Positions 39,001-45,000 of a stretch of DNA of 64,000 nt are shown here, in pieces. This DNA is from an uncultured bacterium. GTDB lineage: Bacteria; Babelota; Babeliae; Babelales; Babelaceae. The stretch's first letter is position 1. Every line of letters starts with the position of its first letter. The stretch lies in assembly GCA_963717435.1 (NCBI GenBank), contig OY970332.1:928001-992000 (forward strand). The letters run 5' to 3'. The position numbers are program-made.

Positions 39001-42000
39001 TTGAATGTTGTTGAAAGAACAATATTACTGTTATTTGAAAACTGTTCTGCAATTTTTCCCAGCTCCTCAAAAGATAGATCTATTTTTAATATTAGTTTTT
39101 GTTTCTTCTTTTCTGCCGGTAATAATTCAGGATTATTTAGAATTTCTATTGAGAGAATTTTTTCAAGATTTCTTATATTTTCAATATCTTTATCATCAAA
39201 ATTTTTTTTGCCCGATCCTTGCCAATTTACACAAGTTACTGGCCTGTTTGTTACAAGAAGCTTCCCGCTTGTATCAAGAATGTTGCCACGTGGCGGGCTT
39301 ATTTTTTCATGTCGCAAAAAGTTTTTCTGCCCCATGATAAAAAAACTTAAAGTCTTATTAACTTGCAGGTGAAACAGTCTGCCAACTATTATTAAAAACA
39401 GGAAAAATATCGAACCCACAAGAAGTTTAAGTCTTGTGGGTAAAATTTTTGATGGTATTTCCATAGAAAATTACTGCACAGATTTTTTATACTGCTTAGT
39501 AACATTTAGGGTTCTTAGGCCCAATAACTCTTCAACCATTTTCAAGTCTGTCCCTTTTTCTATCATATGAACGGCAAAAGAGTGTCTCAAAATATGTGGG
39601 GTTATTTTTTTCCCCTCAGTTAAAAACTTTTCGAACATGCCGCATATTCTCTGGATCGATCTTGTTGTTAAAGACTCGTTTTTGTGATTTACAAAAAGAA
39701 ACTCGCCGTTTTCTGTGCACTCTTTTTTTATGTAATCCACTAGCTTAGATTCAGTAGTTTCTTTGAGCGGGACCATTCTCGATTTTCTATTTTTTGTATT
39801 TATAAATATTTTTTTGTTAGTTAAGTCTATATCTTTTATTTTTATATTAACGATCTCAGAACATCTGATTCCTGTTGAATATAAGATATCAAGAATTAGT
39901 TTATCACGTGTAGGTTTCTGTGACGGGATACTTTTATTTGGGAGTTCTTCTATCAAGAATTGGATTTCTTTGTTTGCCAAAAATTCTGGCGCTTTGTTTA
40001 CTATTTTTGGTCTTTCAAAAGAAATCTCTATATTAATATCATGTAGTTTTAAAAATCTTATAAACGAACTTAGGCATGACATTTTTCTTGCTACAGATCG
40101 TTTATCTAAGATCTTATGTAACAGTGCGGTATTATAGCGTGAGATAGCTTTTGAAATTGGAATCTCAGATGCTTCTTTTTCCTGAATCTCTTTCCAGAAG
40201 TTTATAAACTGTGCAAGATCCAGGTCGTAAGATTTTCTTGTGTTAAGAGCTAGATGTTTTTCAATTTCAAGATAACGTATAAAATCATTTTTATATTTTA
40301 GACAGTCCTGTATATTCATCTTATTTCTTTTATTTCTTTGTTATTTGGTTTCAAAGCAAATTATATAGCCAACAATCTCAGTTAACTCTACACACCCGCT
40401 CGCCCTGAGTGTTCTTCGAAGCCTTGGCGAAGAAGAATGTATCGAAGGGTCGGGTGTTTGTTGTTATACAAGATCTGCTATAAAATATTAAACTCTTTTA
40501 ATCTTCTATTAATCGATGAACGATTAACAGATAAGAGTGTAGCAATTTTGTTTTGATTTTTAAACTTATACCAAAGCATTGATAGAATCTTAGGATCTTT
40601 GATCGCTTTTTTGCCGAGTCTGACAGCTTCGACAAGTTCAGGATCGCTTATGCTGTATGCAGGGTCGAACTCAGTTGTTTCGTAAATCATATTTTTTGTA
40701 GACTTATCGACAAGCATCTGATGAACAATATTTTTGAACTCTTTTAAACTTAAAGATTTGTTAACATAAAGTCTGTTTTTATCTTTATCATTAAGCTCAA
40801 AAAGATTTTTGAAGGTTTGGGTTTTTATCGCTGTTTGCGTAAAGCCATCAGCAAGTTCGCTAATTTCAATCTTAGATAGATTTGTCAGTGACGGTAAACT
40901 TAAAGACATCTTCGCAAGCTCGTTATAAAGCTTTTCCAAGAATTTGCCCTCTTTGACCAACACTTGTAAATTTTGATTTGTAGATGCGATTATTCTTACA
41001 TCACTAAAATGTTTTTCGTCGCTCTTGTAGCCTTTATAAAATCCGTAAATTATAAAATCTGCTAACTGCTTTTGTGTTTCCAAGTTTAAGAAATGTATAT
41101 TTTCTATAAACAAAGTTCCTGCATTATTAAGTTTAGATAACAGGGGCTCGCCTGCATCGACTGCTCCAAGAAGTGGGTTTAGGCCAAATAATTTTATGGC
41201 AACCTCGTTATTCTTTTCAGGAGAGCTTAATTTAATCACATGCAAGTTTTGTCGCAAACTTATGTGGTGCAACATCTCAACAGTTGGTATCAAGTCATCT
41301 TCGGGCATATAAAGCAGAGTAGCTTTTTTGCTCAAAGATGTTTTGAGTAGTTCAATCTTAAAATTTAAAAACTGTGGGCTTGAACTTGGAATCAAGCTAT
41401 TAATTAAGCGGCCGGTATTTGTTGTTTCTAAGTATAATAAATAATCCCAAAGTGACGGATCTTTCAATACATCAAGCTGGGTTTTCAGGATATCTGATAT
41501 TTCTGGATAATAAACCAAAATTGTTATCAAGTTTGTTTCCAAACTTGGGACCCCGGCAAGAACAATTCTATTTCCGGTTAGATCTTTACTAAAAATCGTC
41601 TGGGCGCTTCTGTATTCTTGTACTTGTTTTGCCAATTTTTTAAGTGCTTGTGCTATTGGCTCGCCTGTTTGTTCATTCGGGTTTATACCAACGAGCTCTT
41701 GGGCTGCGATATTGGCCATATTAAATTTGTTGCCCTTATAAAATATTATCCCAATTTTTCTATCAGTATTTGCTCGCAGGAAAGACTTTATAGCCTCTTT
41801 ATATTGGTTAATTTCCTGATGCTTGCTATAAATTTCTTCTTTCAACTCTTTTTCTTGCTGGATTAGTTTATCCAGATCTCTACTCTTTAAAAGATTAATG
41901 GTGTTGCCAAGATAACTTGCAAATACCAATATTTCATCTCTTTCAATACTGCTAAAGAGCTTATCCGGCCTTGAATCTTTTTCGATTATTATATATCCGA

Positions 42001-45000
42001 CGATATTTTGCTTTTCAAATATGGGCAGGAATATGTCTGCGTTAATGCCATTTAGAAAATCGACTATAGCTGTTCTTGCACTATTTTCTTCATAAAAATT
42101 ACTGAACTCAATCTCGTCTTTAATTAAAACTTTCTTTTGCCTTAAGGTTTCTAGCACCAACGAATTTTCACTGCTATTTGCTAACAAGAAGTTTTCTACC
42201 TTTAGCGCTGTATTAACCTGATCGTTATGGTCCCCATCTTCCTGATGCTTATTTAGTTTTCTCAGATACAACTTTGTTCTATTTGCCGGTATCCCAAATC
42301 CTGACTTCAAGAAAGACTGGCTTATATGGGTCAATTCTCGCACGTTCGTGACTTTCCCCAAATCCTCCAAAATATCTTTAAAGTCAGTTATAAAGTTAAA
42401 ATTATGCTTTGCTTGCACATGGTCACTTAGATTTAAGAATCGCAGACCCATAACTTTGCTGGTGCAATAAAAAATGGTAAAAGTTAGTAAAGTTGTTGAT
42501 ATGCTACTGAAGCATAGTTACTAATCGCCAACCCAGATGATGATATGTGGGAAATATTGCAGTAAGTCTACAAAATGTATGGGACAATTAGATATGAAAT
42601 AAATGCCTTAACCTGGTGTTCTAGAATAACTGGCAAATTTCCAGAACGAAGTCTTATTAGAGACTTTATTGCAGCCACAACCATTAAGAAAATTAAATAT
42701 ATATGAGTTATTTTGGCAACAGAGAACTCCAGGGGAGATCATCTCGGAAATATGACACAAATTAAAATTGAATATTGCAAAATATAAAAAAACTAATACC
42801 AAAAAAGTGCTGGTTATTAAGAATGGGATGTGGCTGGGCTTTATTTTTGGTTTGGGTTCTACTATGTTCTCCAAAAATAATCCAAAAGATTGATATTGAA
42901 TTACAGCAAATGCCCAGGCCATTCTCACAATAAAAATATATAATCTTATATCTATGTTGGGAAAAAAGTTGTTTTTTAAAATTCTAAGAACCCAAGCAAC
43001 ATTACTTAACATGGCCCCAACAATAACCAACAATAAAATTTTTACTAGCCATGGCGCTCGTTTTGTTTTTAGACTATTTACAAGTAGTGACAGAAATATG
43101 TATGACTTCATAAGAAGAGATGCAATTTCGGCACAAAAAATGAATACAAAACTGCCCAGGCTTGCGTTAATTAAGTGTATAAAGAATTGAAAATCGACCA
43201 TATTTGTTGATCTTTGTTTTTTAAGTAATTATAATTTTAACTAGTTTTTACAATATTTTTCAGGGAGCTCTTATGTATAATATTAAACCGATGTTCGGGT
43301 TCTTGGCAAATGCCTTCGTTCTTGGAATCATGTTATTTGGTTTTTCAGAGCAATTTTGTGCGCAACGAAATCCAGGTACTTGTACAGTATTTTTAGATTC
43401 TTCAGATTTTCCACCTATAGATTAAAGCTTTAAAATGACAGATAAGACTCAGCTTGCCCTTAAAATAATAAAGCTATTAAAAGAAAAGACAAAGGGTATG
43501 CCGGAGCCGATGTCGCAGGTTTTGGTCTCAGAATATGGGCATGACCCATTCATAATCTTGATGTCATGCCTATTAAGCCTTAGGGCAAGGGATGTTCAGA
43601 CCTTGCCAGTAAGCCGGGAATTATTCAAAATTGCCCGTACTCCAGAAGAGATTCTGGCTATTCCAGATAAAAAGTTGGAAAAAATTCTTTTTCCACTGGG
43701 TTTTTATCACCGCAAGGCAAAAATCTTAAAAGAAGTGAGCCGTGAGCTTATAGACAGATTTGGGGGTAAGGTCCCAGATAATATGGAAGATCTGCTGTCA
43801 ATTAAGGGAATCGGTAGGAAAACCGCCAATTTGGTGTTGTCTCAAAGTTTTGGTATTCCGGCCATATGCGTCGATACCCATGTTCATAGATTGGCTAACC
43901 TGTTTGGCCTAGTTCACACTAAGACCCCGGATCAAACGGAGCAGGAGCTCATGAAAATAGTGCCCAAAAGATACTGGAGCGAGATTAATAGGTTATTTGT
44001 TATGTGGGGCCAAAATACTGGCCGGGGTAAGAATTCTACGGTTATTACGGGTTTGGGGGCAGTTGATAACAGGAAATAATCTGATAAAATAGTATATATG
44101 TTGTTAAATGGGGGAATTATCTCTTATAAGTTACTATTCTAAAATAATGGAGTTAAAAAATATGAAAAAAATATTAGTTTTGGCTGCTTTTGCGGCTCAA
44201 GTTTTTTCTTTTAATTGTGTCAAAGCTGATTTAAAAGAAACAATCAAAAACGCGTCTTATGTAGGTTTTGATTATGTTAAAGATATTTTGGGCTTTAATA
44301 ATCCAAAAGATTTGAGAAATTTAGTTGATGCGATAAGTCAAGTTGATCCTACAAAATTTAAAGAAATTTTGGATACAAAAACCGATCTGTCTGAAGATTA
44401 TAAAAAAGATATTTTAGCTCAACTTGATGCAGTTAAATCTGAATGGGAGAAAAATAGAGGTGTAATTGGTAGGGTATCCAATTTAGCTTCTATTTCAGTT
44501 AGGCTTACTATATTTAGTATTTTATTGTTTTCTGAAGTGTTGATCATTCTGGCAACCGGCGACGCAACCGCCGACAAGGCAACCAGCGACGATCAAAAAG
44601 TGGGTATCAAACAGTTTGCGATTCTAATTGCAGCTTGTGCTGCTTTCCCACTTTATCTATCAGTCCCGTCTATAAAATCTTTTAAGAAACTGTTTATTCC
44701 TGCAAGAAAAATCGGGCAGTTGGAGCAAATGAGAAAGATGGTTGAAGAAAAAACAGAAAAGACTGTCGAAATTCAGGCTGCTTAAGCCCGGTTTTAGCAC
44801 AAGTCGCTAAAATTAGACTTGAAAAATAAAATTATGTATAGCTATGCTACTTTGGTAGTGTAGCTATATTTTTTTGTAATTTTATATAGGGATCTTATCA
44901 TGAATTTTGAATCTGTTAAGAGCTATTTGTTTATTATTAAAGAATCTTGGATCGATAATCTTAGGGCGTTAAAGCCCGGGAATCTGGGCAAGTTGTTATT

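Follow-up and report, generated by a model that had tools for sequence, protein, structure and literature searches.

A putative one-component membrane receptor paired with a divergent small peptide gene in Babelota

A putative receptor gene and a small gene diverge from a shared promoter region

The window analyzed here is a stretch of 64,000 nucleotides from an uncultured member of the Babelaceae (contig OY970332.1, positions 928,001 to 992,000), and all coordinates below count from its first letter. The putative receptor gene lies on the minus strand (43201..40478; 908 codons), with its N- and C-terminal pieces sharing one frame, and encodes a protein of about 910 aa with the order 7TM-GAF-coiled coil-PAS-AAA+-Fis HTH. 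The cytoplasmic part (40478..42451, minus strand; 657 aa) is intact and comprises a GAF domain, a 60-residue helix that would form the coiled coil, a PAS-like domain, a degenerate enhancer-binding protein (bEBP) AAA+ domain with its lid, and a Fis-type HTH. The seven-helix sensor domain (about residues 1–255; 42450..43201, minus strand) is broken: frame switches fall near 42745, 42575, 42544, and 42506, i.e., between about 42750 and 42505, and profile A2 matches this region alternately in frames 0 and +1. The survey's finding that this gene is split and about 910 aa long in relatives was correct, since relatives carry it as one ORF of about 900–930 aa, though there are four switches rather than one. 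These are probably assembly errors, because rpoD and gyrB are broken too; no read-derived contig spans the breaks at 42487–42998.

On the opposite strand, a small ORF (43273..43425, plus strand) begins 72 bases from the receptor start codon and encodes a putative signalling-peptide precursor of 50 aa, with a hydrophobic leader and a tail ending in DFPPID. Over positions 43278–43428, a contig from run X3 (151 bases) shows no difference. This divergent gene had been missed in the survey. Its start is preceded by a Shine-Dalgarno-like sequence, GGGAG (43263..43267, plus strand), and by a predicted sigma70-type promoter, TTGATC-17-TATAAT (43207..43235, plus strand), that matches at 10 of 12 positions. 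The −35 element lies 6–11 bases from the receptor start codon, and the −10 region reads TATAAT on the other strand too. Relatives share this arrangement, with the −35 element beginning at offset 8–10 in 63/95. The flanking genes serve as context: a xerC-like recombinase (39471..40319, minus strand), followed by a penicillin-binding protein gene, is the usual downstream neighbor of the receptor, and nth (endonuclease III; 43435..44079, plus strand; HhH-GPD match), the usual neighbor beyond the peptide gene and located upstream in many relatives, probably stands outside the signalling system.

Most receptor genes are paired with ORFs for putative, hypervariable Pro-Pro peptides

A divergent ORF with a hydrophobic N-terminus and a Pro-Pro tail was found upstream of 82 of the 103 receptor genes, compared to 13/921 control genes, which came from one genome and whose positives include the receptor gene itself. 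The pairing rule was drawn up after the first loci had been seen, and the loci are not independent because they are top-scoring hits and their kin; the same rule recovered a Pro-Pro ORF upstream of 28/32 held-out receptor genes. No such peptide was found at 13 of the 103 main loci even with a relaxed rule. Among 19 divergent paralogs, only seven follow the Pro-Pro rule and two have no candidate ORF. In five divergent paralogs of G010 the prolines are replaced by a common motif of another kind, EF[S/L/N]. There are over 110 candidate receptor-peptide pairs altogether, including one in Noda2021.

The precursors begin with a hydrophobic leader and end in a tail of the form [D/E/R]-x-Pro-Pro-x(1–3). 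Many are only 25–36 aa long, with the hydrophobic stretch running directly into the tail; in long precursors, 20–40 polar residues separate leader and tail, or the tail is repeated, in some two or three times. Coding constraint is indicated by RBS-like words and by close pairs whose Pro-Pro codons differ synonymously. The tails are hypervariable and paralog-specific (109 distinct among 114; different in all 15 tandem receptor pairs for which both peptides were found), which fits a private code. A small residue precedes the acidic tail in 31/45 short precursors, and leucine does so in 9/45, a poor fit to signal peptidase I.

The AAA+ domain resembles an inactive sigma54 activator

The C-terminal piece of the receptor matches Sigma54_activat (E = 2e-12), and NtrX, DmpR, NtrC1, and PspF occupy the top Foldseek ranks, in line with the kinship to NtrC-type activators proposed in the survey; matches to NCBIfam models were all far below their cut-offs. 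An alignment of 172 homologs bears out the reported loss of catalytic motifs. Walker A is recognizable in 0/171 and GAFTGA in 0/170 sequences, and both the arginine finger and the sensor II arginine are absent. Walker B reads GTLFI[K/E/Q]NI[H/E/D], with D at the Asp position in 3/171 and E at the Glu position in 2/171, and the P-loop retains neither of its glycines nor its lysine and has acidic residues there. Other positions are invariant, namely D639 (172/172) and Q713 (171/171), and the recognition helix is nearly so (e.g., S898 in 167/168 and R903 in 164/169). The protein lacks the marks of a canonical sigma54-dependent bEBP (GAFTGA, Walker A, the DE of Walker B, the arginine finger, and an RpoN in the genome). 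Like the atypical members of the VpsR/NtrX/TyrR kind, it combines a bEBP AAA+ fold with a Fis-type HTH at its C-terminus. Sequence and models together support its description as a relative of enhancer-binding proteins that sits in the membrane, is ATPase-dead, and does not depend on sigma54. Its AAA+ domain also matches that of the Babelota NtrX-like response regulator (E = 3e-12), from which it may descend, and a degenerate Walker B is common to both. A possible origin of the receptor input from a fused Babelota NtrY-like kinase input was rejected, as the two have no profile similarity (probability 0.6%).

The sensor is predicted to be a GPCR-like seven-helix domain

Where the survey had predicted 3–8 transmembrane helices, the model of an intact relative gives seven (pLDDT 93), and positive-inside counts place the N-terminus outside and the C-terminus inside. 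The modelled domain is GPCR-like (Z 15.9, rmsd 4.8, 249 residues aligned), although Z-scores near 13–14 are attainable by helical bundles without kinship. GPCRs fill nearly the whole list of structural matches at identities of 5–12%, and a Foldseek search with the domain gave only one match at E ≤ 0.001. While the model has the seven-helix fold of the GPCR superfamily, we do not file the receptor as a member, and as regards common descent with GPCRs the model offers a fold likeness. HisKA_7TM (PF16927) matched 0/103 receptors at E ≤ 0.1; the atlas pointed weakly, at 0.91, to a cluster of which 10% is PF16927. This domain is the most variable part of the receptor (24.5% mean identity vs 40–64% elsewhere), yet buried residues are kept, with K30 in 97/103, R91 in 96/103, and W94 in 98/103. 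The GAF/PAS region, previously proposed from secondary structure, is confirmed insofar as both folds appear in the AlphaFold model; backing from Pfam is weak (GAF_2 in 3/22 members, best E 0.009). Neither a receiver nor a kinase domain was detected in the 22 members scanned. No TPR family appeared among the 25 of 31 families listed in the domain scan of the receptors, and the model contains no repeat domain.

The receptor and the NtrY-like kinase occur in different genomes

A profile search (E ≤ 1e-45) detected the receptor in 152/201 Babelota genomes, after 18 weak matches (E 2e-4 to 5e-12), all in three kinase-bearing families, were set aside. Against the survey's count of 37/41 genomes, a single-protein query recovered 33/41. 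The statement that Babelota have no two-component systems was wrong for three families: Response_reg exceeds its cut-off in 40/201 genomes and an NtrY-like kinase occurs in 31/201. None of the 152 receptor-bearing genomes has this kinase. The phylum does appear to lack sigma54, with the RpoN DNA-binding domain over cut-off in 0/201 genomes compared to 4/14 control genomes, and this genome has one sigma70-family match. Two bEBP matches of canonical appearance and a single RpoN-box fragment, all lying in decayed, short, or contig-end stretches, were discarded as probable contamination or transfer. A search with the seven-helix domain among longer proteins gave at least 31 matches from a capped set of 8000 candidates, all belonging to the receptor family by length and domains; shorter proteins searched for GAF-PAS yielded 47 matches of fragment-like appearance. 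These results hint that the family is confined to Babelota.

Secretion machinery, targets, and ligand modelling

This genome, which is 89% complete, encodes RseP as well as signal peptidase I, whereas a search for an Opp binding protein came up empty. AgrB was detected in 0/41 genomes, and no control genome passed its cut-off either. Neither an operator nor a regulon was found: the promoter profile matches only this locus in the genome, and a masked operator search returned nothing that stood out. A strong palindrome, CTCG-N3-CGAG, was rejected as operator since it belongs to a repeat element. Complex prediction for the seven-helix domain of one receptor (L002) with its own 34-residue peptide tail scored 0.01, which speaks neither for nor against binding. 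High z-scores for covariation between peptide charge class and receptor columns were discarded because the basic class consists of 10 related paralogs.

A proposed peptide signalling unit and its alternatives

The best reading of these data is that the receptor is probably a one-component, DNA-binding peptide receptor with sigma70 promoters as its targets and a probable role in quorum sensing. We consider it reasonably probable that receptor and divergent peptide gene form a two-gene signalling unit working as follows. The small gene encodes a precursor of 20–90 aa, which would enter the Sec path, where cleavage by signal peptidase I or RseP would yield a peptide of about 5–10 residues; the gene pairing suggests that this peptide is released and then sensed by the receptor. 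It may bind an outward pocket of the GPCR-like domain in which K30, D65, W68, R91, W94, and E156 are conserved. The signal would pass from helix 7 through GAF, coiled coil, and PAS to the AAA+ domain, causing an oligomer switch without ATP turnover, whereupon the Fis-type HTH could bind or release a fixed DNA site and alter sigma70 transcription. Inside protists, the system might serve to count kin within the host and time an infection-cycle switch, the least supported step of the model.

MgrB tunes PhoQ from within the membrane, and by analogy the small protein might stay unreleased as a single helix that tunes the receptor, the true stimulus lying elsewhere, for instance in a cue from the host. 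The many 25–36 aa precursors whose hydrophobic stretch continues into the tail would suit this arrangement, as would the 9/45 without a small residue at the presumed cut. We nevertheless regard it as unlikely, given that the long precursors have distant or repeated tails and that hypervariable, paralog-specific tails are better explained by a private code. Alternatively, the receptor alone could sense a host or envelope cue, with the small ORF being controlled from the shared promoter region as a target or simply carried along with it (e.g., a secreted product for the host). Receptors lacking a detectable peptide mostly keep K30, R91, and W94, and the two divergent copies without a candidate ORF point the same way; in contrast, the two genes are duplicated together, and where the receptor changes, so does the motif of the peptide, and a phylum-wide regulator for one 30-residue target seems implausible, making this explanation rather improbable. 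The conservation of the AAA+ region (47%, with D639 and Q713 invariant) could instead reflect a main input through a bound nucleotide or second messenger, for which VpsR with c-di-GMP provides a precedent (PMC6158489). That seems very improbable, as the P-loop has acidic residues where both glycines and the lysine should be and the peptide gene would be left unexplained.

Comparison with known systems

Most known peptide signalling comes from Gram-positive bacteria and runs mainly through two types of receptor. In Agr and ComCDE, the gene for a variable peptide lies next to that of a polytopic membrane sensor, and shp and rgg genes have a divergent layout. The proposed peptide receptor of Babelota resembles Agr and ComCDE in combining a membrane sensor with a variable peptide gene, but differs in having no kinase or receiver, no detected AgrB (0/41), and a Sec-type leader on the peptide. 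With HisKA_7TM (PF16927) sensors and GPCRs it shares seven helices with the N-terminus outside, whereas its output is a fused DNA-binding module. Like Rgg/SHP and other RRNPP systems (PMC3150281), it has an adjacent gene for a putative short hydrophobic propeptide with a presumed active C-terminus, a predicted receptor that is itself a transcription factor, and paralogs with distinct peptides. RRNPP receptors are cytoplasmic and require Opp import (PMC3150281), and they carry TPR-like peptide-binding repeats; in contrast, the Babelota receptor is a predicted membrane protein, with no TPR among the families listed and no Opp binding protein found.

The output half has precedents. Atypical bEBPs working with sigma70 include VpsR, NtrX, TyrR, HupR, HsfA, and PhhR; no ATPase activity was seen for VpsR, and NtrX represses (PMC6158489). 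They share the bEBP AAA+ fold and Fis-type HTH, lack GAFTGA, and have a degenerate Walker B (PMC6158489). A sigma54-independent, ATPase-dead relative of this kind has, taken alone, a precedent in VpsR (PMC6158489). In the fold search, NtrX gave the best matches. The Babelota receptor departs from them in its fused 7TM-GAF-PAS input in place of a receiver and in the additional loss of Walker A, and from NtrX specifically in having neither a receiver domain nor a cognate NtrY kinase.

A peptide signalling system built from one membrane protein looks previously undescribed: literature searches, whose coverage left out most subscription journals and supplements, returned nothing on it. We tentatively propose, with somewhat less than even confidence, that joining a GPCR-like peptide receptor domain to a dead enhancer-binding protein in one polypeptide adds a third design to the two used for peptide quorum sensing in bacteria, membrane kinases and cytoplasmic RRNPP receptors; it could be the central cell-to-cell circuit of most Babelota, with a private Pro-Pro pheromone per lineage or paralog, counting kin inside the protist host and timing the switch to lysis and infectious cells, and standing where other families have their NtrYX-like pair. 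If so, a membrane receptor without a kinase would itself act as the transcription factor, in diderm bacteria living as obligate parasites inside protist cells. This phylum has very few regulators, five being predicted in Babela (PMC4378268). With over 110 pairs, the genomes themselves name a candidate ligand for the receptors, which makes the idea directly testable. The system would also open a way into the life cycle of a phylum that lacks genetics, and it would provide a bacterial GPCR-like fold that binds peptides as well as a compact component for engineered sensing.

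A putative divergent peptide gene lies upstream of the receptor

The chief interest of the receptor locus is a small gene that the survey's finding had missed. The receptor gene (43201..40478, minus strand, 908 codons) encodes a 7TM-GAF-coiled coil-PAS-AAA+-Fis HTH protein; upstream of it, on the opposite strand, an ORF of 50 codons (43273–43425) encodes a hydrophobic leader followed by the tail DFPPID. Our rule for such genes, formulated after the first loci had been seen, called for an ORF of 20–90 aa that starts within 220 bases, reaches a 9-residue hydropathy of at least 2.0, and has Pro-Pro after it. 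The 103 distinct receptor loci to which it was applied are full-length, high-scoring copies (frames shorter than 700 aa or without the N-terminus were excluded); 82 of them satisfied it, and relaxing it added eight (90/103). In the control set of 921 genes from this genome, 13 satisfied the rule, the receptor gene among them; of the 437 whose upstream DNA is free, 7 did. The unchanged rule also held at 28 of 32 held-out loci, i.e., those new and testable among 71 further loci after exclusions that included 29 duplicates and three with too little upstream DNA. Only 7 of the 19 testable paralogous or divergent receptor copies (of 20) conformed; 17 of these 19 were still accompanied by a small ORF whose encoded N-terminus is hydrophobic, a feature shared by about one-third of control genes.

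The tails are hypervariable, with 109 of 114 distinct, and 1–3 residues follow Pro-Pro in 74 of 90 candidates. Both peptides were found for 15 tandem receptor pairs and differed in every one; R-[Y/F/W]-PP is often the tail of the second copy. Some precursors repeat the tail (three copies in L002, a relative's locus), and synonymous changes occur in the Pro codons of close pairs. One genome (G010) carries at least six divergent receptor copies (L185–L190), and every copy is accompanied by a small ORF of its own that encodes a leader. Five of these six paralogs have the alternative common tail EF[S/L/N] and the same five have altered HTH ends, a combination that suggests a radiation of new channels.

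In 95 of 103 loci, the best promoter match facing the peptide gene has the form TTG-N3-17-TAnnnT, a count that partly follows from how the search was built; 63 of these 95 have a -35 that begins at offset 8–10, counted from the start of the receptor gene. The predicted promoter in the window (43207–43235) is TTGATC-17-TATAAT. Flanking bases are conserved past the consensus, and their profile matches this genome solely at the receptor/peptide locus. Searches of this genome, including a check of a palindromic repeat element, found no operator or regulon.

An AAA+ domain without catalytic motifs is joined to a 7TM domain

The regulator protein itself is real, and its reported fold match to NtrC-type proteins was reproduced: NtrX, DmpR, NtrC1, and PspF lead the Foldseek ranks. 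The reported loss of catalytic motifs was borne out by an alignment of 172 homologs (22 loci and the best 150 matches of a homolog search). Walker A occurs in none of 171 aligned homologs and GAFTGA in none of 170, the arginine finger and sensor II arginine have been lost, and the degenerate Walker B reads GTLFI[K/E/Q]NI. An invariant Asp occupies the former P-loop. Because the recognition helix VNRSSVxRR is almost invariant, the HTH would be expected to have a fixed DNA target. The receptor has the fold of atypical bEBPs and falls outside the canonical bEBPs.

The 7TM domain (model from 103 sequences, pLDDT 93) is the least conserved part of the receptor (24.5%); despite this low identity, K30, D65, W68, R91, W94, and E156 are conserved. 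Basic residues place loops 1, 3, and 5 and the C-terminal side inside, and the topology predicted from them is N-out. Most kept residues would then lie toward the outer side, as expected of a peptide pocket. In VIA-align against 48,161 chains, the matches were GPCRs nearly throughout (best Z 15.9, rmsd 4.8, 249 residues), and Foldseek agreed weakly. Since helical bundles generally score high, this resemblance is one of fold only, neither descent nor function. No Pfam family matched the domain in more than one of 103 members; a weak atlas lead points to HisKA_7TM and archaeal 7TM proteins.

Possible mechanism

The receptor architecture, the loss of catalytic motifs, the pairing with a small, variable peptide of exported type, and the shared promoter region are established. 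We consider it rather probable that the protein is a receptor of a released peptide. The precursor would be exported and cleaved; the genome encodes signal peptidase I (52804–53466) and RseP, and a search of it found no Opp binding protein. The small protein might instead stay in the membrane as a modulator, which we think unlikely. For a released peptide, the tail would bind the 7TM pocket; that the receptor is an independent sensor and the small ORF a passenger seems less likely still. The signal would pass through GAF, the coiled coil, and PAS to the AAA+ domain, which would act as a non-catalytic switch; a nucleotide as the receptor's input is very improbable. The receptor may control sigma70 promoters, as do VpsR and NtrX, which act without sigma54 (PMC6158489). 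Since Babelota isolates are described as strictly intracellular in protists (PMC12172432), the system likely serves density sensing inside the host.

If the peptide is truly the ligand, this architecture is categorically new. Agr and Com sense in the same place, yet the system does not belong to their class. Its logic is like that of Rgg/SHP (PMC3150281), but it is not a member. The accessible parts of the literature searched, Babelota genome papers included, hold no description of the system; supplements may include the gene under the NCBI name of its product, sigma54-interacting regulator.

Frame breaks in the receptor gene

The survey had the gene frameshifted or split here. The frame is indeed broken relative to the single uninterrupted ORF of relatives (~900–930 aa), and we located four switches, near 42745, 42575, 42544, and 42506, where the 7TM-domain profile alternates between two frames; the first 197 and last 657 codons share one frame. 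Because the single-copy genes gyrB (G000:C1:903037–905488) and rpoD (287754–289654) are also frameshifted in this assembly, indel errors are likely. Against this, only 2 of 14 loci were broken when checked with relatives' proteins, and both rows are the receptor gene. No contig of the public runs compared covers the breaks. Real decay of the gene, in this genome alone, is still conceivable. Split genes in this genome should be regarded as probable indel errors.

Distribution across Babelota

Strong receptor-profile matches occur in 152 of 201 genomes; 18 weak ones, all in families f6, f11, and f14, were excluded as cross-matches to another protein. RpoN exceeds its cut-off in none of the 201 genomes, in line with the claimed absence of sigma54, but the claim that two-component systems are lacking failed: Response_reg exceeds its cut-off in 40 of 201 genomes and an NtrY-like kinase is present in 31. 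The phylum-wide claim was thus overstated. None of the 31 has the receptor and 18 genomes have neither, a pattern that rests on few lineage events. Profile comparison ruled out the kinase as origin of the receptor's sensor part.

In families f6, f11, and f14, an NtrX-like regulator (L036–L039, L041–L043) keeps Walker A intact but has a degenerate Walker B and a deleted GAFTGA loop; it is sited between mlaF and a MoxR/gspC/gspD cluster; in the genome under study, mlaF is directly beside the MoxR gene, with no such regulator between them. The NtrY-like kinase, found in these same families (L044–L053), is unlinked to this regulator and lacks its periplasmic part in some genomes. Contamination or transfer probably explains a bEBP of canonical appearance on a contig of 2.4 kb (L027:3–2084), a decayed two-component locus (L026:4129–4869), a fragment resembling an RpoN box where a contig ends (L028:43–144), and a run of foreign-looking genes (L040:1–7950).

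Neighboring features

The palindromic repeat (core CGCTCG-N3-GAGT...GTATCGA) has 114 core matches in the genome, with copies in the window at 40397–40455, 6741, 24548–24680, 31165, and 45694. The copy at 40397–40455, between the receptor and xerC-like genes, is missing from a contig of public run X2 that connects 40360 to 40479; either it was therefore inserted recently or a close relative has lost it. At 33957–36310, motifs suggest a PD-(D/E)XK-like nuclease; its ORF overlaps one for a membrane-anchored protein that would end in an Mrr-like restriction domain. The von Willebrand A proteins at 46588–51254 presumably form a BatA/BatB/TPR/BatD-like operon, and the signal peptidase I gene comes after it.
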